DNA of 33,561 nucleotides from contig DATDXM010000068.1 in the NCBI GenBank assembly GCA_035289325.1, forward strand, positions 1 through 33,561. The letters run 5' to 3'. This stretch comes from Candidatus Nanoarchaeia archaeon (GTDB taxonomy: Archaea; Nanobdellota; Nanobdellia; Woesearchaeales; JAGLXL01). Made by a program: the position numbers and the translations under genes. Shown one piece after another: positions 2 to 26,518 of the stretch. The notes under the pieces were generated by a model, which was not told where the DNA came from, ran no database searches, and was given only the letters and a program-made list of their open reading frames with translations. Positions within the stretch are counted from its first letter, which is position 1. Each line of letters opens with the position of its first letter.

Positions 2-1096
2 CAGTTTGTGTATAATCCGATTGAAGAACGAGTTGATATAAAGAAAACTTTTAACAATTCTGGGACAGTTGTTGAGACGGTTTACTATTGGTCCAAAAGT
101 TTTGTTACTGTTGAGAATTTGACAGGACAATATAATTTTACTTTTGTCTATCATGAAGGGCAGCTGATTGCGCAGGAGTTGCAAGGTACAAAACTATTTA
201 TTCATGGAAATCATGAGGGGTCGTCGTCGGTTGTAACGAATTCTACTGGGCAGGTTGTTGAAAGAACTGAATATGATGCTTACGGAAATATCATCTCTGG
301 TGGAACCAAGACGAGGTTTGGATATGAAAATAAAGAAGCAGATTCGGTTGTTGGAGATACGGATTTTAATTTTAGGAAATATAAATCGGAATGGGGATTG
401 TTTACACAGCCAGATACTCTGATTCAGAATGTGTACGACCCGCAATCATTGAATCGTTACATGTTTGAGAGAGGGAATCCGTATAAGAATACTGATCCGG
501 ATGGGCATCAGGCAACAAATTATGCTGATTTTTCTTTAATTAGATTTGGTTTTATTGGTTTGCTTGTAGCAATTGGTGCAGTTACACTTGCATCCGTCGC
601 ACCATTAATACCGTCAGCAATTGAGAAAATCCGTGAAGAGGTTAAAACAACATTGGAAGCTTATGATATAGCTGGAAATATAGAAGATGCTTTTGAATTG
701 GGAAGAGCAATTGGTGAATATGAAAGAAATCCTACTGAAGAAAATCAGCGGAAAATATTTGAATTAGCATTAGCAATGAGCATAGATCGCAGTATCTCTC
801 AGGGTGTGTCTAAAACTGCAGGTGGGGGAGAACTCGGAAAAATGTCTGCTGATTTCATCGGCGCGCAAAATGCCATACTTCACAATTCAGTCGGGTCGGT
901 TCTAGCAAGTAAACTCAGTAATCAAGGAAACATCGCTTCCACAGGTAGTAGCAAAGGTGTTTGCGGAGGAAACATGAGTTGTTCATCCGGTGGCTCTAAG
1001 AAAAGCAATGGAGGTTATAAGCCAAGTAATCCAGATAGGCAAGGTGAGATAACCCCAGGCTTGGGTATTTGTGGGGTGAATCAGTCTTGTGGCTAA
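2..1096 (+). CDS. RHS/YD-repeat polymorphic toxin, C-terminal part (5' end lies outside the window): RHS repeat-associated core plus an unassigned ~190-aa C-terminal module
   Basis: The frame is open from the window edge, so the GTG at 8 is not a real start. A YD-type repeat remnant is present (TEYDAYGN). FRKYKSEWGLFTQPD..VYDPQSLNRYMFERGNPYKNTDPDGH fits the remembered RHS-core consensus (R.YDP..GRF...DP...NLY.Y..NP....DP.G). After DPDGH come a hydrophobic helix (FGFIGLLVAIGAVTLASVAPLI), a helical region and a Gly/Ser/Cys-rich tail. Confidence 0.8.
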   Translation, partial: QFVYNPIEERVDIKKTFNNSGTVVETVYYWSKSFVTVENLTGQYNFTFVYHEGQLIAQELQGTKLFIHGNHEGSSSVVTNSTGQVVERTEYDAYGNIISGGTKTRFGYENKEADSVVGDTDFNFRKYKSEWGLFTQPDTLIQNVYDPQSLNRYMFERGNPYKNTDPDGHQATNYADFSLIRFGFIGLLVAIGAVTLASVAPLIPSAIEKIREEVKTTLEAYDIAGNIEDAFELGRAIGEYERNPTEENQRKIFELALAMSIDRSISQGVSKTAGGGELGKMSADFIGAQNAILHNSVGSVLASKLSNQGNIASTGSSKGVCGGNMSCSSGGSKKSNGGYKPSNPDRQGEITPGLGICGVNQSCG

Positions 1097-1109
1097 AATA
1101 AACGAAGCT

Positions 1110-1520
1110 ATGAAGTTTGAGAAACGTCACTGTCTTGGTCTGTTCCTAGTTAGTTTATTTTTGTTATCCTTGACTATATTAGTTTTTCCGCACTACTCAA
1201 TATATTCAAGAAAAGGAATGATATTCCTGTTTATACTTTCAACTTTTGGTATAATCTGTTCTTTTGTATGGTCTATTTTTATAGTAAAAATTTATGATGC
1301 AAGCCGATTTTATCAAGTAATGGATGACAATAAATTAGTAAAGATTAATTATTTGACTGTTGTAACTACATTAGGTCTCATTATCATAATTTTTTCTTTA
1401 AATTTTTTTCTTTCAGTTAACGATTTCTGGGGAGTTCTATTGATCGGCATTTGCATCGCTTTTTTCCCACTAATTATCCAATATCACAAAGGCATCATCA
1501 AACTTATAAAAAAAGAATGA
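1110..1520 (+). CDS. Small polytopic membrane protein (about 4 TM); candidate immunity protein for the upstream toxin
   Basis: The ORF starts right at the toxin stop: a GTG at 1089 overlaps the stop, and the first ATG is at 1110. It has four long hydrophobic segments and no recognisable family motif. The immunity role is inferred from position only. Confidence 0.55.
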   Translation: MKFEKRHCLGLFLVSLFLLSLTILVFPHYSIYSRKGMIFLFILSTFGIICSFVWSIFIVKIYDASRFYQVMDDNKLVKINYLTVVTTLGLIIIIFSLNFFLSVNDFWGVLLIGICIAFFPLIIQYHKGIIKLIKKE

Positions 1521-1720
1521 GAATCACAAGTAAAATCCATTTTAAATCACCATTAGGTGTCAACTAAAGATGATTGGAACTTTGCGTAACAAAACCGATG
1601 ACCATTTTCTTCTCATACTGTTATTTCTTTTGATATTCCTATTTTCTCTTACATCCAATCACTAGCAAAAAAACAACTTCAAACAAGAAATAAAAACTTA
1701 AGCTATAGGAGGTAAACATT

Positions 1721-2068
1721 ATGAAAAAAATAAACGATTTTTTACTTGGAGTTGCATTATGCGCATCTTTATTTATCTTATCTATTTTTACAAAGTATCG
1801 GTTTTACACATTGATACTATCCTTCGTAGCAATATCTATTCTAAAACTAATTTTTAGTCCGAAGTCACTTAAATTCTCAGCATCCGATAAGAGAAGCACC
1901 TTATTTTTTTGGACACTTTTACCCGTTGCACTTGATGAAATTTTTCTTTTCTTGAAATTGGATTTAGCTTTATCATTGGGAATCTCTGTGATGTACGTTT
2001 CTTTAATAACAATTGCTGTTATTTATCACAGAAAAAGTCAAAAGAGTGGGTCGCACCCCCTAAAATGA
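1721..2068 (+). CDS. Small polytopic membrane protein (3-4 TM); possible second or orphan immunity protein
   Basis: AGGAGG at 1707-1712 lies 8 nt before the ATG at 1721. The product is hydrophobic, and the DNA is AT-rich like the preceding gene. Confidence 0.6.
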   Translation: MKKINDFLLGVALCASLFILSIFTKYRFYTLILSFVAISILKLIFSPKSLKFSASDKRSTLFFWTLLPVALDEIFLFLKLDLALSLGISVMYVSLITIAVIYHRKSQKSGSHPLK

Positions 2069-6758: not shown

Positions 6759-7550
6759 TTACCCTTTCAGATTAAATTCTTTCTCGGCTTTTGCAACCAG
6801 CTTGCTGTTTTCGTCATACAGCTCAAGCGTCACCTTGATGTTAGCAGGGTCGGTAACAGATGAACTATATGCAACAATCTTGTCGAATGCGTTTTGGATT
6901 GTTTTACCGGCTGCGACCTCTGCGGTGTTATGAGGCACTTCAACTATAAGAGTACGTTCTGTTGGAGGATACCCTTCAATAAAGATTTTGAACTCCGTTG
7001 GCTTGATTGTGCCTGTCTCGCCGTTGACAAGCGTGTAATAAATTGTGCGAATTGTGCCGAAGCCTTGCTCTTCATTCCATTTGAAAACAGGCGTGCGCGT
7101 GAAATCGAGCTTTACATTGCTGTAGGTTGTGACGACTGCTTCGGATGCTGCTTCGGTTGATTCAGCTGCAATTTCATCTGTAGCTCCTTCGGCAACTTCT
7201 TCAGCTGCCACTTCTTCAACAACGGCTTCTGTAGTTTCAGCACTTTCTTCAGTTACTTCAACTGGCGCCGCTTCAACAGATTCTTTGGCATTTTCTGGGA
7301 CTACTTCCGCCTCGATGGAGTCTGAACCACCGAAATTATTTGCAATAATAGCTGCAAAGATGCCCGTTTTGCCTAATGGCGCAGTGGACGGGAACACATA
7401 TCGCCCGGCCAAAAAAGAACCGGCGAGAAGCGCGACAATAACAAGAACAAAAACAACGCTTTTCAGACTGATGCTCACTTTCTTATCTAACACACCTTGG
7501 GAGCCCGATGCGGACTCAACCGGATTAAACTGGAACTTTTGTCCTGGCAT
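6759..7550 (-). CDS. Hypothetical membrane-anchored protein with an acidic E/A/T/V-rich linker and a C-terminal beta-rich domain
   Basis: It has one TM helix (VVFVLVIVALLAGSFLAG) and a low-complexity acidic stretch of about 70 aa. It is wedged between pheS (1-nt gap) and pheT (2-nt gap). Confidence 0.7.
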   Translation of the reverse strand: MPGQKFQFNPVESASGSQGVLDKKVSISLKSVVFVLVIVALLAGSFLAGRYVFPSTAPLGKTGIFAAIIANNFGGSDSIEAEVVPENAKESVEAAPVEVTEESAETTEAVVEEVAAEEVAEGATDEIAAESTEAASEAVVTTYSNVKLDFTRTPVFKWNEEQGFGTIRTIYYTLVNGETGTIKPTEFKIFIEGYPPTERTLIVEVPHNTAEVAAGKTIQNAFDKIVAYSSSVTDPANIKVTLELYDENSKLVAKAEKEFNLKG

Positions 7551-7551
7551 T

Positions 7552-9078
7552 TTATCTCACCCATGCTTCTGCTTCGCGCAGTAATTTGAGATTGTTGTTG
7601 TATAAATCTCGAATATCAGTAATACCATAATAGGAGCTTATAATTCTATCGAGTCCAAGACCCCATGCAAGCACGGGGATGTCCTTCCCAAGCAGAGGGA
7701 TGACAACTTCAGGTCTGAATATGCCTGCGCCACCTAATTCCATCCATTCTTTCTTTATCGGATGAAATACTTCAACTTCACAACTTGGTTCGGTGTATGG
7801 GAAGTGAGCTGGGCGAATGCGCACATCTGTATAACCCATTTTCTTGTAAAAATCACGGAGGTAACCTTTCAGATGCTGAAAATTTGCATTTGGGTCAACA
7901 ACAATTCCTTCGACCTGGAAGAATTCGAAGAGGTGCTTCCAGTCGAGCGCTTCATTGCGGAAGACTTTGCCGACAGCAAAGAACTTTGCCGGCAAATCAG
8001 TTTCTTTCAACGTTGCAAGTGTCTGTGCGCTGAGCACTGTTGTATGTGTACGCAAGAGAAGCTGCTGTGCGTCCTGGGAGCTCCATGAGCCACCCCAGCC
8101 TTTGCTGCCTGTTCCTTGACCATGCTCGTGCACTGCTTTGATTTTTTTTGCAATCGACGGAAGATCGCCTTTGCCTGCAACATAAAATGTGTCCTGCATT
8201 TCGCGAGCAGGATGGTCTTGCGGAACAAATAACGCATCAAGATCCCAGAATGCGGTTTCAATCATGCGGCCAGACATTTCTTTAAATCCAAGCTCCATCC
8301 AAATACGCTTGATATAGTCAACAGCTTGTGTTGCGATATGTTTGCGCCCAAGTGTAAGAGAAGGAACCTTGACTGAGACGTCATATGCACGGAACTGCTT
8401 GCTTTTCCAGCTTCCTTCGGCAAGCATCTGCGAGGTCAAGCGCCCAATGACATCAGCATTACCTAGGCCTTTTTTGAGCAGTGCTTCACCGAGTGAGGTG
8501 AGCTGGATTGCTGCATCTTTATCTTCATGCTCTTCAACAATGTTTCTTTTTATGAACTGATGTACTGTTTGTTTGTCTGCTGTGTCGAGAGAGGCAGAGA
8601 TGAGAGGAAAGTGTTGCGATAAAAAAAGCTCGTCTTCTGTTTTTTTTGCAAGAAGCGCTTTTCCTTGTGAGGTTATTTCAACGACGACGCCATTGTCACT
8701 TTTGTTCATTGAGATTGCTTGTAGCCTGCGGAGGATGCCAAGGCCTGCGCTCAGCTCTTCGTCAGTGAGTTCAGCGGCTTTTTTCAATGAAGGCAAGTCA
8801 ATAGGATGCTTTAATGCACGAATTATTTTGCGCTCAGGCAGTCCCTCGCGGGTGTAGCGTTCGCCGGACGATGTGAGATGTACTGTTCGTGCACTTGTTT
8901 TTTGTGCGGTGATGAGCTTCTTGTTCTCAAGCCACTCCAAAGCACGCATAACCTCGACATCCTTGAGACCAGTTTTTTTTATGATATTAGTGCGAGTAGA
9001 ACAGGATTTTAAGAACGGCAGAACTTTATGCTCATAGGGATGAAGCAGCTTTATTATCTTGTTGAGATCTGCTGACAT
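7552..9078 (-). CDS. pheS: Phenylalanine--tRNA ligase alpha subunit (archaeal type)
   Basis: N-terminal winged-helix repeats precede a class II core (FVPQDHPAREMQDTFY, FRNEALDWKHLFEFFQVEG, GGAGIFRPEV, AWGLGLDR). Confidence 0.95.
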   Translation of the reverse strand: MSADLNKIIKLLHPYEHKVLPFLKSCSTRTNIIKKTGLKDVEVMRALEWLENKKLITAQKTSARTVHLTSSGERYTREGLPERKIIRALKHPIDLPSLKKAAELTDEELSAGLGILRRLQAISMNKSDNGVVVEITSQGKALLAKKTEDELFLSQHFPLISASLDTADKQTVHQFIKRNIVEEHEDKDAAIQLTSLGEALLKKGLGNADVIGRLTSQMLAEGSWKSKQFRAYDVSVKVPSLTLGRKHIATQAVDYIKRIWMELGFKEMSGRMIETAFWDLDALFVPQDHPAREMQDTFYVAGKGDLPSIAKKIKAVHEHGQGTGSKGWGGSWSSQDAQQLLLRTHTTVLSAQTLATLKETDLPAKFFAVGKVFRNEALDWKHLFEFFQVEGIVVDPNANFQHLKGYLRDFYKKMGYTDVRIRPAHFPYTEPSCEVEVFHPIKKEWMELGGAGIFRPEVVIPLLGKDIPVLAWGLGLDRIISSYYGITDIRDLYNNNLKLLREAEAWVR

Positions 9079-12733: not shown

Positions 12734-15700
12734 TTAGCCTATCAATCGCGCTATAAATCCTCGTATGAACCATATTATGCTTGAGCCTATATTCTTCATT
12801 TTATCTATGAAAGTTGATTCTTCGACTGCAGTGCACTTCATATCAACACATTTGCCTTCACAATCGTCATCAGTCAAGCATTCTGCCTGCTTGCAGATGT
12901 TTTTATCACAGAGTTTTGATGTGCAATCATTTGCGGTATTACATTGTTTTTCGTTGTCGCATAATGGACAGGAGCCTCCGCAATCAATATCAGATTCATC
13001 CTGATTCTTTATTCCATCGGTACAGGATACTGCTGCGGTGTATTCGCATAATCGTTCCTCTGCAGGTTTTGGCGTTGATTCAATCTTTGCTCCTTTTGGA
13101 CAGGTCTCATCCACTGAACATAATCTTGTTTGCTTTCCTTCAAGGCTGCATTCACTCCACGATAAGCAATCCCATTGTGTTTTACATATTATTTCGGGTA
13201 CGACCTTCTCTTTGCTTCTGATGCCCCCTCCTCCCCCACCACCTCCGCCGCCGCCCCCTGTGCTTGGCTCGCTGACTACTGGCGCCGGAGCTTGGGCAGG
13301 TTCCTCTGCAATCGCAAAATAGCTAAATCCTGGTGTGATTGCTTTGTACTGTATAGCTGATTCTGTTTCGCCCAAGAGTGTTGTGCTCATTTTTTCCCAT
13401 TTTTCTGTTAAGCGATAGAGAGAAATGCGGTTTTTATCTGCATTGTGTTCTGTAAACCATGCATTTGGAATTTCAAAAATGATTATTTTGTCTCCTTGTG
13501 TTTCTAGTGACGTTGTAATCTCCACGATGCTGTGTGTCTTTCCCAGCTCTGCAACTTGGGGAGCTTCTTGCAGTGGTATTACTTTTAGATGAACATTGCC
13601 TATTGTTTCAGCAGTCAATTCTATCTGCTTTATTGGAACGTTTTTATTCGTCACTTCGATAATTTTCTTATTTTCTACAACCGCGACAAATTCTGTTGGA
13701 GCACACGCTTCTTCGCTTCCAGAACAATCCTGATCAATTCCATCGCAGGTTGTATCCGGGGCACTTGGATTAACCGCAGCGCTGTTGTCGTTGCAGTCGT
13801 TTACTTTTGCAGCATATCCCTGAGGCGCTGTGCATGCGCTTGTGCTTTCTGCACTCAAACCAAAGCCATCATTGTCCTTATCAATAAAGAAGCTTAATTT
13901 CACGTTTTCATCAATTTGTGCATCACAATTGTTGTCTGCATTATCGCAGACTTCTGCTGACGATGGATTTATATTAGCATTGTCATCATCGCAATCATTT
14001 GCCACTGTAACATATTCTTGTGGCACTATGCATGCCTCTATCTTTTCTGTTTCACTACCGAAACCGTCGCCATCCTTGTCACTAAAAAATGTTGATAAAA
14101 CACCTTCATCCGTCTGCGCGTTGCAATTGTTATCGCTGTTATCACATATTTCTATTGATGCTGGATTTATTGCTGCACTGTTATCATTACAATCGCCGGC
14201 GCGCGCTGCATATCCGTCGAGTATTGAACAGGCTTCTTCTGTGTCCATAAGCAAGCCATATGTATCTTTATCTTGGTCACGATAAATTGTTACCTGCACA
14301 TTTTCGTCTATTTGTGCATTACAATTATTATCAATAGAGTCGCATCTTTCAGCTGCATTTGGATTTACGGCTGCGTTATTATCGTTGCAATCTATCACAC
14401 CGCATAATCCTCCTTCCAATTTTGAGCCATCGTTATCTGCGTCTGTGCCAAGTGCATCTGCTCCTGAACAGTCTTGGTCGATGTTGTCGCAGAGCAATTC
14501 TGTTGCAGATGGATTTATAGCTGGATTGTTGTCGTCGCAGTCATTTGAATTGATGACAAAACCAACGGGAGCTGTGCAGGATTTTATACTGCTTCCCGCA
14601 CCGAATCCGTCTTTATCGTTGTCTTGGAAGAAGTCGAGCTTATTGAATCCTTCGTCAACCTGCCCATCGCAATCATTGTCTATACCGTCGCAAATTTCTG
14701 CTATATTTGGATTAGCTTGTGCGCTATTGTCATCACAGTCTGCAAGCGCAGGAGAACATAATATTATTCCTCCTATAAAACCATCATTATCTTTATCTTC
14801 GTATGGACACATGCCCGTAAGTTGCGGATCATGCATGAATTGCGACCAGCCTATCTTGCCTGCTGGAATTTCCCATACAAAAATTGATCCTCGCTGTTTT
14901 GATTCAAAATTTATAGAGTCAAGGGCGAGTGGTGACGTTCCTATAAGTTCGAATGTTCCATCTCCCTCCAGATCATCAATCTTGAAACCATGAATCATTG
15001 GGTCCCCATTACCATAAGCACCCTCTTGGAGAACTATCGACTCTCCAGAACTCGAAAGAAATGCCATATATTGCTTGTCAAATACGGTATATGGGACAAT
15101 TAAATCCAGAGCGTCATCATTGTTTACATCCGATGAAAGTATATTTGAAACCTTGCCTCCTCCAAAACCTAAATCTCTTGGCCATCCGGGAAGCACGTTT
15201 GCATTTGCATCTCTTAATTCAAGCTGCCCAAACTGAGCTATTGCTAGTTCATTAAATCCATCGTCATTTGAGTCAACAATTGCAATGCTATATATACCGG
15301 TTTTCTGTATAGGCCAACCAGGTAACGTTTGTCCGTTCTTGTCGAGAACAGTTATGTAGTCTAGATCATGCCATATAACTTCGGGAATTCCGTCTTTTGT
15401 CATGTCTGCAACTAAAACTTGTGTTGTGCTTCCTGTTGCTGGCGTAGGCCAACCTGAGACAACAGACCCATCAGTGTTCAGAACATAGATACGACCAGTA
15501 AATCCGAAGGTCTCCATGATTGGTGTTACTATCTCTAATTCAGGATCATCGTCAAAATTACCGAACGCGGGGTTTGTTTGGAATTCTTTTTGGCCAATGG
15601 CACGAGATTTGCTCCCCCGCCTAAGAACGTTAAACGTTTGCCTATTCGGATAGTCTGTGTTCGGTAAACTCCACTTTTTTAAAATGGCACCTTTTTTATC

Positions 15701-18397
15701 AATAATGAAAAATGTCGCCATTCGGACCGGTTGATGCTCGTATGCTTGGATAACTATTTCAGATTCTCCATCCTGCTCAAGATCTATAACTGAAACTCCA
15801 TACACCAGAAGAATCCGGTCTAGAATCACTGGGAATCCACTTACTTCAGATCCATCTCCATTGTATGCATGCAGTTTTGATGTGCCTGATCCATGCGTTA
15901 CAGCCAAGATTTCATCGGCTGGATCGTTATCAAGATTTGTTACGGCTGGATGTCTGCTTCTTATGTATGTTGAGCCAAAATTTGGTATTTCTTTTATGAA
16001 TTTACCTTGTGCACTGTACAACAATATTGATTTTGTTAAACTTACAATAATCTCTTTTACTCCATTTCCATCGACATCTGCTGTCAAAACATCCATATTT
16101 CCGAGAAGTGCGTTGCCCCCGAATTGATAGTCCGGCCATGGAATCCGTTGCGGCCACCCTTCTTTTACCGTCGGATCAGCAACTATGTCAAATATATAAT
16201 CAATTATTGTATCGCCGGTTAACAATTGCACCGTTAATTTGAAATCATATGCTTGTAATGTCGGCTCTGGTGCAAATAATGCATTTATTTGATTAGTTTC
16301 TACATATTGAATTCTGTCGCTTGCATAGTTTGCATCTCCTTTTTTCTTATACTCTATGGTATATGAAGCAATATCTCGAAGATTTGTGGCTTGTATTTCT
16401 ATAGGCCGTTTTGCACTGTATAAATCGTTATTCAATGGAGAATCAATCTGTAGAATATCAATAGTTACTGTCGCTTCGGCTATACTTTCGCGACCGGCAT
16501 CGTCTTGCACTCGTAACTGAATAATAGATCGTCCGTCTGGTAATATTAAATTGTCATATAATAGACCACGCGTTCGGCCGCTATACGAAGCTATATCTCG
16601 CTGAATACCATTCACGATGTATTTAAGCTGATATGACACTGCATTTGTTCCGTCAGCGATACCTTTAATGTCTATAACTCCGTTTTCTGGCGGAGATAAT
16701 TCTAACTCAGCAATGGGCGGTGGGCTTGTTAGTTGAATCGCAACATCTGCCCTTACCAATCCATTTCCTTGTATGACCGAATCTTGATTAATGCTTTCTG
16801 TAGCGAATTTTATTGCTGACTTCATTTCTTCTGGTGTCCATGAAGGATTTTTTTGTTTCAGTAAAGCAGTTACGCCCGCAACATGCGGTGTTGCCATACT
16901 GGTTCCAGAAATAGCAATGTGTTTGTCGTCAAGACAGTGGCTGTCAATATTCTTTGCATCTTTTATTCTCTGCCATATTTTATCCTGCGAAGATTGAGCT
17001 GCACATATACTCACGCCTGGGGCTATAACATCTGGCTTATTCAACGTGCCCCCAGGCCATTGAACAGGTCCGCGTGAAGAAAATGATGCAATCTTCTTGG
17101 TCTTATCAACTGCTCCCACTGTAATTGCTGTTCGTGCAGTGCCAGGGCTTCCTATTGTTTGTTCAGCTGGACCAGAATTTCCAGCAGCAACGATAGCTAC
17201 AACACCGTTACGTACGGCTCTGTCAATTGCCTGTGATGCAAGATCATCTGGGTTTCCTCCACTTCCAAGGCTTAAACTTATGATATTCACTCCATCATTT
17301 ACGGCTTTGTCAATTCCGGCAATAACATTTGCTAATGTGCCGCTGCCACTTGAACTCAGCACTTTATATGCTACGATATGTGCATCTGGAGCGATGCCCC
17401 ATAATTCGTTTGATTCGTAAATATTATTATTGTTGTAGTCTCCTTTGCCTGCTGCTGTCGCTGCTACATGTGTACCGTGTCCGTGGTCATCCATCGGATC
17501 AGCATCGTTGTTGAAGAAATCATAGCCGCCGATGACTTTGCAGCCTGCTCCTAAGCATTCACCAAGATCCGGGTGTGTATAATCGACACCAGTATCTATA
17601 ATCCCGATGGTAATTCCCTGGCCTGTATATCCTTGCTCCCAAACTCCGCCAGGAGAACTTGCGCCAATCATATCGGCAGATTCCTGCAATAATATTTCTG
17701 TATAGTCTCCCGATGATAAAACATCTGTGCTTGCTTCGATTGGATCTCTTGTGAAGCTAAATACATTTGGTTTGTCTGGACTTGTTCTTGTGTACGTTTC
17801 TGTAATCTCATGATTATCTAAAATTCCTACTATAACGTTCGGATAAATCCTTTTTACTTCAGGCAACCGTGCGATTTCTTCCACTTCCTGCTCTGTAACT
17901 GTTTCCTCCAGAATAACAGCATTCATCACCGTGTTAGCAATTGGCATTATCTCTGTCGCTTCGACCGATGTTGTTTGTTCAATCTTCGCAATAATCTCCT
18001 GCTGCCCTTCGATAACCTGCTGCTCAACAACTTCAGAAACCTCAGCAAGTTCTGCTTCTAACACCTGAACTTGCTGTTCTGCTTCAATAACATCCGTTGC
18101 TTGCCCAATTAAATCTCCCGATATAATTCCACTTTCAATCTGTTTAATTTCTTCTTTAATTTCAAGAACTTCGGCGTTCTCTAAAACTGCTGGTTCTTCT
18201 AGTTCAACAATATATCCTTCGCACTCTGCCTCCGGCGGACAGGGGACTATCTCTACGATATTGGAAAACTGTGTTGCTTTACCTGCGATGTCTTTAGAAT
18301 AATCGATTCCTCCGTAGATAATAACCCCCATAATGATAATAGAAACAGTCCATAGAATAATCTGCTCTTTATGCTTTGCTTTGCTCCTCTTTTTCAC
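12734..18397 (-). CDS. Giant (1887 aa) secreted multidomain protein: signal anchor, I9-like propeptide, subtilisin (S8) protease, Ig-like domains, FG-GAP/VCBS propeller, six MopE-like Cys-rich repeats, pre-PGF-like domain, Gly12 linker, Cys-knot modules
   Basis: The S8 triad motifs are GIIDTGVDYTHPDL (D268), HGHGTHVAATAAG (H307) and SGTSMATPHVAG (S500). Eight D.(D/N).(D/N)G...E(I/L) loops occur with GWP/GFP motifs (aa ~745-1195). Repeats have the form DKD.DGF...C...DC(D/N)D.....NP...E.CD..DN.C. The sequence ITPGFSYFAIA is present. Later come CTDGIKNQDESDIDCGGSCPLC and further Cys spacers. The start is a GTG at 18397 with a TATA-like box 22 nt upstream. Confidence 0.9.
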   Translation of the reverse strand: MKKRSKAKHKEQIILWTVSIIIMGVIIYGGIDYSKDIAGKATQFSNIVEIVPCPPEAECEGYIVELEEPAVLENAEVLEIKEEIKQIESGIISGDLIGQATDVIEAEQQVQVLEAELAEVSEVVEQQVIEGQQEIIAKIEQTTSVEATEIMPIANTVMNAVILEETVTEQEVEEIARLPEVKRIYPNVIVGILDNHEITETYTRTSPDKPNVFSFTRDPIEASTDVLSSGDYTEILLQESADMIGASSPGGVWEQGYTGQGITIGIIDTGVDYTHPDLGECLGAGCKVIGGYDFFNNDADPMDDHGHGTHVAATAAGKGDYNNNNIYESNELWGIAPDAHIVAYKVLSSSGSGTLANVIAGIDKAVNDGVNIISLSLGSGGNPDDLASQAIDRAVRNGVVAIVAAGNSGPAEQTIGSPGTARTAITVGAVDKTKKIASFSSRGPVQWPGGTLNKPDVIAPGVSICAAQSSQDKIWQRIKDAKNIDSHCLDDKHIAISGTSMATPHVAGVTALLKQKNPSWTPEEMKSAIKFATESINQDSVIQGNGLVRADVAIQLTSPPPIAELELSPPENGVIDIKGIADGTNAVSYQLKYIVNGIQRDIASYSGRTRGLLYDNLILPDGRSIIQLRVQDDAGRESIAEATVTIDILQIDSPLNNDLYSAKRPIEIQATNLRDIASYTIEYKKKGDANYASDRIQYVETNQINALFAPEPTLQAYDFKLTVQLLTGDTIIDYIFDIVADPTVKEGWPQRIPWPDYQFGGNALLGNMDVLTADVDGNGVKEIIVSLTKSILLYSAQGKFIKEIPNFGSTYIRSRHPAVTNLDNDPADEILAVTHGSGTSKLHAYNGDGSEVSGFPVILDRILLVYGVSVIDLEQDGESEIVIQAYEHQPVRMATFFIIDKKGAILKKWSLPNTDYPNRQTFNVLRRGSKSRAIGQKEFQTNPAFGNFDDDPELEIVTPIMETFGFTGRIYVLNTDGSVVSGWPTPATGSTTQVLVADMTKDGIPEVIWHDLDYITVLDKNGQTLPGWPIQKTGIYSIAIVDSNDDGFNELAIAQFGQLELRDANANVLPGWPRDLGFGGGKVSNILSSDVNNDDALDLIVPYTVFDKQYMAFLSSSGESIVLQEGAYGNGDPMIHGFKIDDLEGDGTFELIGTSPLALDSINFESKQRGSIFVWEIPAGKIGWSQFMHDPQLTGMCPYEDKDNDGFIGGIILCSPALADCDDNSAQANPNIAEICDGIDNDCDGQVDEGFNKLDFFQDNDKDGFGAGSSIKSCTAPVGFVINSNDCDDNNPAINPSATELLCDNIDQDCSGADALGTDADNDGSKLEGGLCGVIDCNDNNAAVNPNAAERCDSIDNNCNAQIDENVQVTIYRDQDKDTYGLLMDTEEACSILDGYAARAGDCNDNSAAINPASIEICDNSDNNCNAQTDEGVLSTFFSDKDGDGFGSETEKIEACIVPQEYVTVANDCDDDNANINPSSAEVCDNADNNCDAQIDENVKLSFFIDKDNDGFGLSAESTSACTAPQGYAAKVNDCNDNSAAVNPSAPDTTCDGIDQDCSGSEEACAPTEFVAVVENKKIIEVTNKNVPIKQIELTAETIGNVHLKVIPLQEAPQVAELGKTHSIVEITTSLETQGDKIIIFEIPNAWFTEHNADKNRISLYRLTEKWEKMSTTLLGETESAIQYKAITPGFSYFAIAEEPAQAPAPVVSEPSTGGGGGGGGGGGGIRSKEKVVPEIICKTQWDCLSWSECSLEGKQTRLCSVDETCPKGAKIESTPKPAEERLCEYTAAVSCTDGIKNQDESDIDCGGSCPLCDNEKQCNTANDCTSKLCDKNICKQAECLTDDDCEGKCVDMKCTAVEESTFIDKMKNIGSSIIWFIRGFIARLIG
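13223..13258 (-). repeat. Gly12 coding tract (mixed GGN codons; C/G-rich on the plus strand)
   Basis: Read on the minus strand, the codons are ggg ggc ggc ggc gga ggt ggt ggg gga gga ggg ggc, between EPST and IRSK. Confidence 0.9.
13703..14809 (-). repeat. Six tandem coding repeats (about 55-65 aa each) of a Cys/Asp/Asn-rich putative metal-binding (MopE-like) motif
   Basis: The repeats cover aa ~1197-1565 of the giant protein. Each unit has an Asp-rich DKDNDGF-type loop followed by DC(D/N)DN..A.NP.A.E.CD..DN(D/N)C(D/N).Q.DE. Confidence 0.8.
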
Positions 18398-23492: not shown

Positions 23493-26351
23493 TTATTTTG
23501 AATGCTGCGTGGCATGCACAACAGCTGCCAAGAATGATTCTAACTGCACATATTCATCGCTGCCCTCAGTCATGCGAAACTCAGTTTCTCCGCATTTTTC
23601 GACCAGCTCTACTTTTTGGCGGTCGGTGATTTTTAAGTTCCAGATTTCACGCTGGATGTGCTTTATCATATCAAGGCCGCTCAAGCCGTGCTCAAGCATT
23701 GTTTTCAGCAGCTTGTTTCTTGCATCTATGAATTTGTTTGTGCATGCAAGCTCAAGAATAGCGAGGATGTCATGCGGACGGGCACTTGAGACAATGCTGT
23801 AAATACTGTCAACCGTAATATTTTTCTGAATGACGGCAATGCTTTGCAAAATGTTTTCAATGCGACGGCAATCGCCGCCTGAGATGTTGTATAGTGCGTC
23901 AACCACGTCAGGCGCTATTGTTAACTGTTCGCGCTGGGCGATTATTGTCACGATTGCAGCAACGTCATCTTTTGTTAATGGCTTGAAATGAAATACTGCG
24001 CAACGGGATTGAATGGGGTCGATGATTTTTGATGAATAGTTGCAATTGTGGGAAACAAAGCTATTTGTAATAAAATTATGGTCATTTTGACAAGTGATAT
24101 CCATCACTATATCTTCCTCGATTTCTTTAATTTCTGCTATTTCATTTAAAAGAAGGTTATCCATGGCCTCGATATTTTTTGTCCATTCGTCAAATGTCAT
24201 TTGAGAAAGGCGTGGAGAGTGTATTTCTTTCTTTTTCATTCTACTATAAACAAAATCTGAGCTAACACCGTATTTTCGAGCCGTTTCAAAAATACCATAA
24301 CCATTGTTGACTGCTTCAATCACTAACGGTGATTTTTTGCGTAATATCTCGACAAGATATTCTTTATACCTCAAATATTCGGCAGATAAACGTGCAAGCC
24401 TTATTTTATAGTGCTCATAGGCGTATCCGATTCGAGAAAAATATCTAAACATATTGTGATTATTTGCCCGTAAAACTAATTGAGCAGTGAAAACAGGAAC
24501 GTTGTCTCGTGTTCGGATCTCCCCCTTATCCTGAACTGCAACGTACGTATCAACTTCAAATTCTTTGAATAGGTCGCTGAGATCATCGTAATAGTTAAAG
24601 ATTTCATTTTTAAGGTTCTTTGCTTTATTTTGCCGTAAGGATACTGCGCCACAATTCTTTCTTTTCCATGAAGGTTTATCGGCATCACAGCCAAAAAGTG
24701 CTCGTAAAAATTCTCTTTTCACATATTTCGTCCCATTTTTAATAAAAAGTGGTACTCTATAGGGGATAACGACTTTATCACCTTTTGGAACGCCAAGATG
24801 TTGTAAAAGCAATGATAATGGCTTTGAATCAAGGCTGAATGAGGTGGTTATTCCATCGAATGTTCTTCCTCTAATAGTATTTGTAAGAGCTTTAGAAGTT
24901 ATCTTTGAATAATTTTTATATCCTAAAATCTCAAGATCTTTTTGAACTTCTTTTAAAGTTAAATCATTCCCTGTAAAATGCAGTCGAATATCATTGCGCA
25001 CGAGATGTCCATCCCCAAGCATAAATCCACAAAGCCGTGCGAGTGCACCAACTTTTTCTATGTCGTTATAGGTGATGCCGAGGAGTTCTTTTCTTGTCAG
25101 TTCCCCTAGGACTCGGTCAATTCTTCCACGAGCAACATTGTTCTCTGATTTTTTAACTGCAGAATAAGACATTTCTAGTTTAAACTCATTCTGAATAAAT
25201 CTTCTGATATCCATATTATTTCTTAGAACAATTGCTTTCTTATCTGTAACAAAAAAAGAGTGTATTTTTTTATTTCTACTCCGCCGGATATAACTTTTTC
25301 TCTCAAGCGCAGGAAGTAAATAATTAACGCCCATTCGCGTTAAACCAAGTGCTCGCTGTAGGTCTTGGCGTGTTATATTAGGATTATTCTTTATAATTGA
25401 ATATATCTCAAATTCTCGTGGTGTGAGCCCGTCTTTGATCTGTCTTAGCTCAAATATTCTCTTCAAGATCTGCTCTTTTGCTATTGAATGGAGCTTATTG
25501 AAATGAGCTGTATCGCCAATTGCTTTGAGACCGTCATTTGCTTCAGTTCGCGACAAAAATTGAACAAAATTGCTTACATTAATTATTCTAGTTGGACTAT
25601 TTTCAACAGGAGTTGTCTCAAGATTTGGGTATATAAGTAACCTATCGTTTTTAGTAAGCTTACCTGATTCTTTCCATCCAGCTACTGTGTATAATTGGTG
25701 GTCCTCTGTCACTTTTATCTTCCGCCCGCTTGTTGTTGTAATCTCTAATACTTTTTTTCCTATCGAAGAAGCTGGAAACTTTACTGCTGCAACTGCAATA
25801 TCACTTTTTATTGAATGTTTTGAGGACAAGTTTTCTATGTGAATATGTGGTGAATTAGATTCGTATTGATCAACAAAATCATTTATTTTTATCTCTCGTT
25901 CTCCAGGTAAAAGAATTTTAGTATCGGGTGTTACACAGCTCAAAATGAATCTCGCAGTTTTTGTGTAGCGTTCCATGGTGCGCCTCAATGCCTGCTGCGC
26001 TTCTCTTGTGAGTGCGTCGCTTTCGTCGAGGTAAATCACTTTGAACGGCATGGTGCTGAGTGAACGGGTTCGAGCAAAATCCTTGACTTTGACACGGACA
26101 ACATCGATGCCACGCTCGTCTGATGCGTTTAATTCGAGAAAATGCTGTTTCCAGTCGTCGCCATATAATGCACGTGCGATAACTAAAGAGAGGGATGTTT
26201 TTCCGACTCCTGCAGGGCCCGAAAATAAAAGATGAGGCATGTTTTTTTGTTCAACAAATGCCCGAATGCGGTTGACGATATCTTTATGACCTTTGATATC
26301 ATCGAATGTTACTGGGCGGTATTTTTCCGTCCACATTGCGTGCTCGTCCAT
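23493..26351 (-). CDS. rfcS: Replication factor C small subunit, interrupted by one intein (mature protein about 321 aa)
   Basis: Motifs are MWTEKYRP, Walker A GPAGVGKT and Walker B YLDESDAL, then ARFILS | intein | [15 protein letters not shown], followed by lid and collar regions. The start is set at MDEHAMW (26351) because TATTTAAA lies 22 nt upstream. The track start at 26411 would include the promoter. Confidence 0.95.
   Translation of the reverse strand: [952 protein letters not shown]
24045..25937 (-). mobile_element. 631-aa intein with a LAGLIDADG homing endonuclease and extra helix-turn-helix domains
   Basis: It begins with Cys ([11 protein letters not shown]), has block B VTEDH, and ends [21 protein letters not shown] followed by a +1 Cys. 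The LAGLIDADG motifs are [11 protein letters not shown] and [12 protein letters not shown]. A wHTH-like segment ([30 protein letters not shown]) is present. The DNA is visibly more AT-rich than the exteins. Confidence 0.9.
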
Positions 26352-26373
26352 CCGATGATGTGGAAAGAAGGGG

Positions 26374-26381
26374 TTTAAATA
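26374..26381 (-). promoter_or_regulatory. TATA-like box (TATTTAAA on the minus strand) for rfcS
   Basis: It sits exactly 22 nt upstream of the ATG at 26351. An adjacent CCTATAAT lies further upstream. Confidence 0.5.
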
Positions 26382-26518
26382 ATTATAGGCGAGCGGACTA
26401 ATGCACATCAATAAAATAATCTCGAACAGAACAAGGGCTGTTTTTACTTATCTCAAGCAGGATTGCCTGATCCTACTGCATAAGGCTATCAATTTGTCCT
26501 TCTTGAATCTCCTGAAAT

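Follow-up and report, generated by a model that had tools for sequence, protein, structure and literature searches.

Positions 2–1520 of the DNA analysed here, a stretch of 33,561 nt (hereafter the window), are, as we judge with moderate confidence, a stored toxin–immunity cassette in a Woesearchaeota-like archaeon of the DPANN group: the variable tip that it encodes (CT4) would damage the membrane of a target cell when deployed, and the membrane protein encoded next to it (Imm4) would counter that damage. The module is the last of three orphans in a two-unit locus, and in related loci tips and downstream genes are exchanged together. The features on which this reading rests are collected in Table 1.

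Table 1 Features at the left end of the window.
Feature	Position (nt)	Strand	Remarks
Pre-tip part of the orphan gene	2–505	+	Final YD-type repeats and the greater part of the RHS-associated core
RHS repeat-associated core domain	272–508	+	TIGR03696; DPDGH junction motif at its end
Variable tip CT4	506–1096	+	196 aa and stop; no Pfam or PDB-sequence relative; small family
Single strongly hydrophobic helix of the tip	554–610	+	IGLLVAIGAVTLASVAPLI; mean Kyte-Doolittle 2.35 over 19 residues
First Cys loop, CGGNMSC	962–982	+	CGINMSC in P0002
Second Cys loop, CGVNQSC, C-terminal	1070–1090	+	CGVNVSC in P0002
imm4, 4-TM protein, cognate immunity candidate	1089–1520	+	143 aa (GTG 1089) or 136 aa (ATG 1110)
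R', 100-nt copy	1553–1652	+	96% identical to the sequence with which the second big YD gene begins
p115, 115-aa membrane ORF	1721–2068	+	3–4 predicted TM segments; adjoins the cassette

An orphan gene with an RHS core

The first reading frame (frame 2, nt 2–1096) is open at the left edge of the window and, read as an ORF, terminates in ...DPQSLNRYMFERGNPYKNTDPDGH followed by 196 aa. A preliminary description of this DNA held that the frame ends in an RHS repeat-associated core, and NCBIfam bears this out: TIGR03696 (Rhs_assc_core) matched fragment residues 91–169 with 46.5 bits (cut-off 32.5; E 4e-12). Matches to the Pfam families RHS and TEN_YD-shell were weak and under their cut-offs, the latter reaching 19 bits against 50 over profile positions 770–892 of 909. 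The same description took the frame for the end of a long RHS gene and called for recovery of the full-length gene, which longer contigs from the same strain supplied (L001:8066–9376, 100% identical to the window). The gene is instead a complete orphan module of 436 aa at the far end of an array, with no signal peptide and with codons 1–72 lying to the left of the window. About 240 aa precede the tip, so that the tip-bearing polypeptide lacks the long YD-repeat shell (about 650–750 aa) looked for; ~500 aa of RHS repeats reside in a separate big protein, and a two-chain shell enclosing the tip is possible.

The end of the core is sharply delimited. In our alignment of the family (A1) the block DPxxLNRY...NP...DxxGH is invariant, comprising N215, Y217–Q220, L222–Y225, N231–Y233, D237, G240 and H241, and similarity drops abruptly past H241 and its DPxGH motif. 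Candidate Asp residues of a putative autoprotease (D210 or D218, plus D237, in the numbering of the 436-aa protein) are conserved, and their spacing, in our own alignment to the consensus, is four residues off the canonical 23.

A toxin array in the same strain

In the longer contigs from this strain the genes are ordered bigA, smallA, two small ORFs, bigB, smallB, imm1 and the three orphans, each of which is followed by a 4-TM ORF of 131–145 aa. A unit consists of a big TcB/YD protein, a short signal-peptide protein (RHS core and tip) and a membrane protein; signal peptides are present in smallA and smallB and absent in the orphans. Three unrelated tips are distributed over the four modules of L001, and the repeat families D1, D2 and D5 reappear every ~1.6–1.76 kb. 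The DNA is 99–100% identical across contigs from six metagenome assemblies, with the tip covered in four. R' is the scar left by the duplication from which unit B arose, and the 31-codon ORF at 1570–1665 is what remains of it.

BigA contains FG-GAP, TcdB_toxin_midN (E 4e-16) and RHS repeats, and the big protein of a related locus (L007) has SpvB in addition. BigB, which adjoins the window's array, is without the FG-GAP, SpvB and TcdB_toxin_midN modules because it is truncated. The big subunit also carries a PKD domain, adhesion-type like FG-GAP, within a C-terminal region of ~450 aa. The tip of smallA has a hydrophobic helix, yet the ORF downstream of it encodes a soluble protein of 184 aa. 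By eye, the smallA tip resembled a nuclease (...RRADVVGID...IEIHQIG...), an idea that found no support in Pfam or PDB and was dropped.

The preliminary description also noted that the block is more AT-rich than the ribosomal genes after it. This is real and extends to third codon positions, with a GC3 of 0.27–0.28 in the tip, imm4 and p115 against 0.41–0.48 in most housekeeping genes. As a sign of horizontal transfer it is weak, since low GC3 is common to some housekeeping genes as well (0.32–0.35 in L14e, subtilase and RFC). The genes that follow p115 encode L34e and L14e, which indicates an archaeal context; no tRNA or Rfam feature was found in the window.

The place of the module in the array bears on whether its toxin half is still of use. 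It might be a decaying relic that is never reused, with the immunity gene alone functional, if anything. Such decay is in keeping with the missing signal peptide, with codons 1–28 that are unrelated to the signal-peptide region of in-service genes, with the last array position and with the low GC3, and the homologous orphan of L007 is truncated to its final ~35 core residues and cut off from the array by an IS110 transposase. The 436-aa ORF is nevertheless intact, with its ATG 17 nt past the preceding stop, and its sequence is identical across independent assemblies. Moreover, its pre-tip part is 87% identical over ~500 nt to signal-peptide-bearing smallA, with a 44-nt exact stretch in common, which could support recombination, and in GW2011_AR15 a tip of the same family is in service, occupying the signal-peptide-bearing slot. 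A relic thus appears very improbable to us. Under the stored-cassette reading that we prefer, the orphan toxin would probably stay undeployed, because it lacks a signal peptide, until it recombines into the signal-peptide-bearing gene, and imm4 would meanwhile shield the cell from neighbours that deploy a CT4 tip.

The variable tip

CT4 consists of an N-domain of ~125–140 aa, predicted to be helical, followed by a Gly/Ser-rich tail. Two of its features had been described correctly beforehand, namely the one strongly hydrophobic helix, whose position is kept in P0002, L013 and L053, and the duplicated Cys motif of the tail (56 aa, including 14 G and 10 S). Both loops are retained in the sole close homologue, P0002, so their duplication is not due to chance. 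A similar Cys-loop tail is joined to an unrelated N-part in L033, and cysteines nearly always occur in close pairs across these tips in general, in line with what is expected of extracellular proteins. The tail had also been likened to glycine-rich bacteriocins. No bacteriocin family, or any other, matched it in Pfam at E<=10, and the motif closes an RHS-core protein of 436 aa rather than lying in a small leader-bearing peptide.

Relatives of CT4 are few. An exhaustive search of 1.84 billion (1.84e9) representatives retrieved a single further cluster, and the family has five members in all; word-index protein searches, run with the tip as well as a profile of four members, gave zero matches and missed even the tip itself. 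The earlier statement that the tip has no recognisable toxin fold agrees with our searches: no Pfam family matched at E<=10, and the four-member profile, run against all PDB chain sequences, matched at best unrelated proteins (E 0.28). AlphaFold2 modelled the tip with a pLDDT of 43 alone and 37 with a two-sequence alignment, and Foldseek on this low-confidence model yielded nothing meaningful (best E 0.38); matches of ACE2 type were helical-hairpin noise from the poor model and were disregarded.

Several amphipathic helices had also been attributed to the tip, and these we discount. The hydrophobic moment of the tip peaks at 0.54; the peak in shuffled sequences is 0.47 ± 0.08, and 18% of them reach the value of the tip. 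Neither a hydrophobic hairpin nor several amphipathic helices were found, the tip having a single hydrophobic 19-mer. Outside that helix the N-domain is hydrophilic and acidic (net charge −5 across tip residues 1–140, helix included) and contains the conserved polar residues Y72, E79, N80 and K83, a combination that suits a binding or enzymatic domain equally with a pore. As for helices at the start of tips, they may be delivery or anchoring devices and, in a Sec-exported protein, could be stop-transfer signals.

The candidate immunity gene

Two small membrane proteins behind the tip had been proposed as immunity candidates, the first with a start codon overlapping the stop of the toxin gene. 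The first, imm4, comes next after the tip and has four predicted TM segments, as described. The overlap applies to a start at GTG 1089; alignment with Imm4 homologues favours ATG 1110, 13 nt past the stop, which makes the 136-aa product more likely. Two loci that had looked like allele variants, with ORFs of 136 and 143 aa (L003 and L004), are identical in DNA and differ in their start calls, and are thus uninformative on variability. Homologues of Imm4 lie 3' of CT4-family tips in two other loci, L007 (29% identity, E 1e-16) and GW2011_AR15 (L013). They share the motifs NxLxKxN and IQYHKG, which by the alignment and the positive-inside rule are predicted to face the cytoplasm. Members of the two families thus occur together in three divergent loci, and it is because 4-TM homologues accompany CT4 tips there that we regard imm4 as the cognate immunity candidate. 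In two further CT4-family members (L053 and L046) a 4-TM ORF follows the tip with no detectable likeness to Imm4. Imm4 itself had no match in Pfam at E<=10 or by profile in PDB.

The second candidate, p115, is preceded by the strong AGGAGG that had been pointed out (1707–1712, 8 nt 5' of its ATG). Among 5.8e9 proteins its sole match was a 99%-identical variant, essentially itself; it has no similarity to the ORF at the equivalent place in L007 and no relatives in any fetched locus. An ORFan that is not co-inherited with the cassette and is set apart from it by the duplication scar, p115 was rejected as a second immunity gene, and of the two proposed candidates imm4 is the one that travels with the tip.

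Tip swapping across related loci

Allele comparison had been named beforehand as the diagnostic for a polymorphic toxin. Our comparison set comprised 76 related loci, mostly from DPANN archaea, with 78 modules, whose tips form 49 clusters and whose downstream ORFs form 51. These two sets of clusters co-vary, and the sequence ahead of the tip is conserved; an exchange of the tip goes with an exchange of the downstream gene, within the locus as well as across the 76 loci. On this sequence comparison, a polymorphic-toxin reading is well supported. At least two TM segments are predicted in 53 of the 61 archaeal downstream ORFs (87%), compared with none of the five in bacterial-labelled loci and three of 24 other window genes. 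Any Pfam match at all is rare among the tips (4/72).

A hydrophobic helix at the tip start (residues 1–9) occurs in 21 of 29 in-service signal-peptide genes and in 14 of 38 orphans, and the in-service tips that have it belong to many unrelated families. With the helix so general in the archaeal system, it is weak evidence that CT4 forms pores. The cassette may be of the same kind and yet work differently, with the helix as a generic device for insertion, translocation or anchoring, the conserved hydrophilic helical domain as the toxic part, which would act in the interior of the target or on its cytoplasmic face, and Imm4 either blocking entry or binding that domain at the inner face. The distribution of the helix over unrelated tips, the soluble partner of the helix-bearing smallA tip, the invariant polar residues of the CT4 N-domain and the cytoplasmic placement of the Imm4 motifs are all consistent with this, and N-terminal TM regions have been proposed to move other Rhs toxins across membranes (PMC10684867). 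However, the hydrophilic part has no enzymatic motif or known domain by Pfam and PDB profile, no translocation machinery is known for these archaea, and membrane-acting toxins are the simplest cause of immunity candidates of which 87% are membrane proteins. We hold this division of labour to be possible but doubtful.

It is chiefly in DPANN archaea with ~1-Mb genomes that the family is found, and the host dependence of DPANN is established in cultivated members (PMC6642349). Together with the membrane proteins that make up nearly all partners and the adhesion-type FG-GAP and PKD domains on the big subunit, this would suit a system for host interaction or self-recognition in an episymbiotic cell. 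The YD cocoon would then place tips into the host membrane for nutrient uptake or attachment, or mark kin, and the membrane partner would protect the producer membrane or complete a complex in it. Against this, stacks of orphans with kept partners and the co-variation of tips and partners are the signature of a toxin–immunity arms race, and the locus shows no tie to a host. We consider such a role highly unlikely.

Comparison with known systems

Orphan rhs-CT/rhsI modules have reportedly been found in E. coli, Salmonella and Dickeya, in work of the type of Poole 2011 and Koskiniemi 2014. As in bacterial Rhs loci, an RHS-associated core is followed by an abrupt loss of similarity after a DPxG motif, the variable tip is directly followed by its own small immunity gene, and a 3' stack of 5'-truncated spares is homologous to the main gene, into which they could recombine. 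Unlike in bacteria, the host is a DPANN archaeon, the tip is encoded in an independent ORF of ~420 aa that contains a Sec signal peptide and just ~215 aa ahead of the tip, and PAAR, VgrG or T6SS components were not seen here. The archaeal junction reads DPxGH where the bacterial one reads DPxGL, and the archaeal system further differs in that its immunity candidates are nearly all multi-pass membrane proteins and its tips so seldom match Pfam. The framework for such comparisons is that of polymorphic toxins (Zhang et al. 2012, PMC3482391).

The two-gene layout is reminiscent of TcB and TcC of Tc toxins, in that the big subunit has FG-GAP, TcdB_toxin_midN (with SpvB in L007) and RHS repeats and a second protein combines an RHS core with a hypervariable tip. 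In the archaeal system the split lies nearer the C-terminus, leaving ~215 aa of shell in the small subunit; the shell portion of TcC is ~680 aa. Differences from Tc also include the PKD-containing C-terminal region of the archaeal big subunit, the signal peptides on both archaeal subunits, and the orphan arrays and immunity genes, neither of which Tc loci have. No TcA-like translocator was seen among the fetched loci or the 18 scanned window proteins.

Pore-forming colicins are countered by immunity proteins with three to four TM segments, and they resemble the cassette in having a small polytopic membrane protein encoded beside the toxin. Unlike them, CT4 lacks a hydrophobic helical hairpin and receptor or translocation domains of colicin type, and no similarity to them was detected. 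More broadly, no likeness of CT4 to a known pore-forming domain emerged by sequence or fold (PDB profile, E 0.28; Pfam, none at E<=10; Foldseek, E 0.38).

Another parallel is Tse5, an Rhs toxin of Pseudomonas aeruginosa whose encapsulated, pore-forming tip of 16 kDa enters membranes and depolarises cells, with the small immunity protein Tsi5 as its antagonist (PMC10684867). In both systems an RHS core precedes a small tip (~150–200 aa) that has a hydrophobic segment and lacks an enzymatic motif. There is no sequence similarity between the two, the CT4 profile being empty against a PDB chain set that may omit Tse5. In contrast to the two-gene archaeal system, Tse5 is a single polypeptide of 1317 aa delivered by T6SS, and the activity of CT4 is only predicted.

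Proposed mode of action

The mechanism that we propose starts with a large secreted TcB/YD-repeat protein and, encoded beside it, a short protein of ~420 aa, which carries a separate Sec signal peptide, the final YD repeats, a probably self-cleaving RHS-associated core and the variable tip; the spare tip and immunity modules without signal peptides that are stacked 3' would serve as replacements. After a cut behind DPDGH, the tip would most likely enter the cytoplasmic membrane of the target by way of its hydrophobic helix. Once inserted it would impair membrane function, and the 4-TM Imm4 would neutralise it inside the membrane. We do no more than infer that CT4 forms pores, because the hydrophobic helix is system-wide and the amphipathic helices are within chance. 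From the initial reading of CT4 as a pore-forming or membrane toxin we retain the polytopic membrane immunity candidate as an argument, give the helix little weight and discount its supposed amphipathic neighbours.

Significance

The kind of system is well known in bacteria; CT4, Imm4 and the two-gene archaeal layout found no counterpart in the libraries searched. Makarova et al. 2019 (mBio 10:e00715-19) reportedly predicted archaeal polymorphic toxins, RHS/YD-type systems included. Our full-text search for DPANN or Woesearchaeota with Rhs or polymorphic toxins, whose scope did not take in that paper, found no account of the two-gene layout, CT4, Imm4 or membrane immunity. Classical polymorphic toxins have been reported as scarce in archaea (PMC3482391). 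A later paper cites computational predictions of polymorphic toxin systems in archaea, and by that account archaeal toxin predictions lacked experimental tests as of 2021 (PMC8416519).

A bolder proposal, speculative and in our estimate unlikely, is that a two-chain TcB/RHS cocoon, secreted through Sec, has arisen in DPANN archaea and brings membrane-inserting tips to the target from outside, nearly all tips and antidotes being membrane-based; targets may then be the host cells of the episymbionts, opened for nutrients, and CT4–Imm4 would be one of ~50 tip–antidote families. We know of no injection machines in DPANN archaea.

CT4 and Imm4 are short proteins of 196 and 136 aa, and three loci have kept the pair, which makes it directly testable by expression. 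The locus shows that groundwater archaea with small genomes harbour large RHS-type arrays that are actively shuffled and in which the tips are nearly all of unknown families and the antidotes nearly all membrane proteins. If these tips act on membranes from outside, the arrays would be a pool of new membrane-active proteins and would help to explain how DPANN cells combat the cells around them or feed on them.

An orphan RHS-type module and its membrane partner

The cassette at the left edge of the window is very probably an orphan RHS-type toxin–immunity module, that is, a spare module without a signal peptide, with the ORF directly 3' of its toxin tip as the immunity gene. The reading frame concerned (frame 2, + strand) extends without interruption from the left end of the window up to nt 1096 and runs through ...NVYDPQSLNRYMFERGNPYKNTDPDGH into the 196 residues of the variable tip, here called CT4. 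The RHS repeat-associated core ascribed to this ORF in the preliminary description was recovered with NCBIfam model TIGR03696 over fragment residues 91–169 (46.5 bits against a cut-off of 32.5; E 4e-12); Pfam RHS and teneurin YD-shell models gave only weak matches. The description of the tip likewise held for a single strongly hydrophobic helix (a 19-mer, mean Kyte–Doolittle 2.35), for a Gly/Ser-rich tail with a duplicated Cys motif (two CGxNxSC loops) and for its unlikeness to any recognised toxin fold; neither CT4 nor its partner, Imm4, had a match in Pfam, among PDB sequences or, in usable form, by structure. The amphipathic helices also proposed for the tip did not exceed chance.

Two small membrane proteins had been described next to the tip, and both are present: the ORF encoding Imm4, with four predicted transmembrane (TM) segments, and then a 115-aa membrane ORF with AGGAGG 8 nt upstream of its ATG. 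The reported overlap of the RHS stop with the 4-TM start exists only if GTG 1089 is used, whereas homologues favour ATG 1110. L34e and L14e come next; genes for both PheRS subunits (alpha and beta), for a member of the eRF1 family and for an RFC split by an intein lie farther along the window. This gene content shows the chromosome to be archaeal, as had been supposed. The tip and the two membrane genes have a third-position GC of 0.27–0.28, whereas most housekeeping genes reach 0.41–0.48, consistent with the AT-rich block noted earlier, although three housekeeping genes are low as well. Elsewhere in the window, the RFC intein contains MarR/HTH_24 matches and no obvious homing endonuclease, and an S8 subtilase, probably a very large protease of the cell surface, has FG-GAP repeats and six metal-binding motifs of MopE type.

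Features of the window and of related loci
Feature	Location	Strand	Remarks
Tip (CT4)	window 506-1093	+	196 residues after core
100-nt direct repeat	window 1553-1652; L086 6679-6778		Flanks unit B
115-aa membrane ORF	window 1721-2068		Strong Shine-Dalgarno; ORFan
S8 subtilase	window 12734-18397	-	1887 aa
RFC small subunit	window 23493-26411	-	Split by ~620-aa intein
Unit A, bigA			>=1465 aa; FG-GAP, TcdB_toxin_midN, RHS repeats, PKD
Unit A, smallA			421 aa; signal peptide, YD repeats, core, tip
Unit A, following ORFs			Soluble 184 aa, then membrane 140 aa
Unit A, in-service tip and following ORFs	L086:4431-6669
Unit B, bigB			989 aa; RHS repeats, PKD; no TcB-type N-terminus
Unit B, smallB			414 aa; signal peptide MRKTTLITIFMLWLIASLPVVHA
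Unit B, ORF			133 aa, 4-TM
Unit B, three orphans			338, 437, 436 aa, each then a 4-TM ORF (145, 131, 143 aa, respectively)
Second tip family	L001:5274-5891, 7031-7621		Two adjoining orphans
IS110-family transposase and two-gene pair	L007:6050-9850		171-kb contig
Gly/Ser linker on unrelated N-part	L033:6637-7131
Example of the 76 related loci (L010-L085)	L013:1457-8151

A two-unit array and its probable duplication scar

Longer contigs of the same strain (99–100% identical to the window) were retrieved via the 115-aa protein, and searching by DNA pattern extended the sequence 6.7 kb farther upstream. The first ORF of the window, correctly taken for an RHS-core gene, proved to be a complete 436-aa gene rather than the tail of a long one. 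It is the last orphan of a locus comprising two units, A and B (see table), and the window's left edge falls within it. All three orphans lack a signal peptide and are homologous to the signal-peptide-bearing, in-service genes smallA and smallB only from about codon 29 onward. Over ~500 nt, the last orphan and smallA are 87% identical, and the two have a 44-nt exact stretch in common, which makes transfer of the orphan into an in-service gene by recombination plausible on sequence grounds; that the window's copy is a dead relic appears improbable.

The downstream copy of the direct repeat, in the window, is a 96% copy of 100 nt that start 17 nt upstream of bigB's start codon and take in its first 28 codons; past the repeat, bigB is homologous to an internal stretch of bigA (76% identity). 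Such a junction is expected if unit B originated by tandem duplication of a segment reaching from inside bigA to the 100-nt stretch, and this looks like its history, with bigB apparently having drawn its start codon and hydrophobic N-terminus, as a signal-anchor, from former intergenic sequence. The 96% identity of the repeat is far above the 76% of the duplicated gene bodies. The genes for Imm4 and the 115-aa protein lie on opposite sides of this scar.

The array also contains a second tip family (AAIWVHYSETKENYIAAGFS...YYYHEYD...GNIEHALGHDIGS...), found in L018 and L030 as well, for which no Pfam match was found; its partners are paralogous 4-TM proteins with identical C-terminal 36 aa. The in-service tip of unit A consists of a hydrophobic helix and then a globular-looking domain, and no known domains were detected in it or in the two ORFs that follow.

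Relatives of the tip and the probable immunity partner

Exhaustive phmmer searching of 1.84 billion representative proteins returned, apart from the tip itself, a single real relative, P0002 (E 6e-19, 37–41% identity); two other matches were repetitive proteins and were rejected. P0002, on a 171-kb contig (L007), is a truncated orphan near another big-plus-small locus, and has the layout of CT4, both Cys loops included. It is followed by a 144-aa 4-TM protein, a homologue of the 143-aa Imm4 (29% identity, E 1e-16), and the ORF after that is unrelated to the 115-aa gene. This orphan is set apart from its array by a transposase of the IS110 family and by two paired genes, encoding 208 and 219 aa, for which no Pfam match is on record.

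Three more distant relatives (in GW2011_AR15, UBA9989 and a Nanoarchaeia MAG) have in common a ~125-aa N-domain, with a TM helix and an NPTxEN..K motif, and differ in their tails. In the complete genome of GW2011_AR15, the tip is located in a signal-peptide-bearing gene, and the second gene downstream encodes an Imm4 homologue. Of the two immunity candidates proposed, the 4-TM ORF stands, with homologues accompanying two relatives of the tip. No support was found for the 115-aa gene, an ORFan beyond the scar; among 5.8 billion proteins it matched only a variant 99% identical to it, essentially itself. It could be a former immunity gene that has stayed behind, or have no connection with the cassette.

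Tip and partner exchange across DPANN archaea

With one genome per species, 76 loci had the same pre-tip region (40–66% identity), almost all in DPANN archaea (Woesearchaeota, Nanoarchaeota/Nanoarchaeia and Pacearchaeota). Modules 55–67% identical to DPANN ones also occur in MAGs labelled 'uncultured Methanosarcinales' (some ~1 Mb), Gracilibacteria, Coatesbacteria and Desulfobacteraceae (L011, L014–L018, L059, L060 and others), and the labels or binning of these contigs seem doubtful. The suggestion that tip-plus-immunity cassettes are swapped on a conserved shell was borne out across these loci: the 78 modules with a core motif fell into 49 tip clusters and 51 downstream-ORF clusters, and the two classifications track each other. 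That the tip system serves host interaction or recognition is, in our assessment, unlikely.

Only 4 of 72 tips had any Pfam hit. Downstream ORFs had at least two TM segments in 53 of 61 archaeal cases (87%; binomial p 4e-24 against a background of 25%) and in 0 of 5 from bacterial-labelled loci. Where the pre-tip region was complete, 29 of 38 modules had a signal peptide, against 1 of 34 shorter modules; 17 of the 29 abut a large upstream ORF (432–1980 aa, most >1400), mostly with YD repeats. In 21 of the 29 signal-peptide-bearing genes (72%), a hydrophobic helix starts no more than 9 residues from the cleavage motif, compared with 14 of 38 other modules having one that starts within 25 residues (p 0.006). 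Where tips contain Cys, the residues are nearly all in close pairs, C-x(1-8)-C; this applies to 31 of 32 such tips, against a mean of 6.2 in shuffles. The pairs often lie at the extreme C-terminus (e.g., WWCFWCKR, CKGSGC, YYCKTC) and occur in L001, L007, L012, L014, L016, L018, L033, L035, L049, L055, L064 and others; the Gly/Ser linker of the window's tip, with two GCGxxxSC loops, is also found attached to an unrelated N-part in L033.

Possible mode of action and relation to known systems

We infer that the tip, deployed from a signal-peptide-bearing slot, would be cut off after DPDGH; its helix would then enter the target membrane, the inserted tip would upset membrane function, and Imm4 would counteract it within the membrane. 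The Tse5/Tsi5 pair provides an experimental precedent for such action (PMC10684867). Alternatively, the helix may be a delivery or anchoring device only. A simple pore is disfavoured on four counts: there is just one hydrophobic helix in the tip, the rest of the domain is hydrophilic and acidic and contains polar residues that do not vary, the helix occurs throughout the system, and the motifs common to Imm4 proteins (NxLxKxN, in the central loop, and IQYHKG, past TM4) would, by the positive-inside rule, face the cytoplasm. The delivery or anchoring reading therefore stays a serious rival to membrane disturbance by the tip.

In the literature searched, we found neither a description of these DPANN loci nor the combination of membrane ORFs, hydrophobic helices and few Pfam matches across them; Makarova 2019, which reportedly predicted polymorphic toxins in archaea, lay outside that search. 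Those predictions, RHS-type toxins included, are cited in PMC8416519 and in bioRxiv 10.64898/2026.07.27.741052.

The DPANN system operates in the manner of bacterial Rhs loci that have orphan modules and, at the subunit level, of TcB–TcC cocoons, but lacks the full single-polypeptide shell of canonical Rhs. It further differs in that the short subunit carries its own signal peptide, the junction is DPxGH, no injection machine is visible, the immunity proteins are predominantly membrane proteins and hardly any tips carry a recognised toxin domain. CT4 and Imm4 each add a new family to these RHS-type systems.
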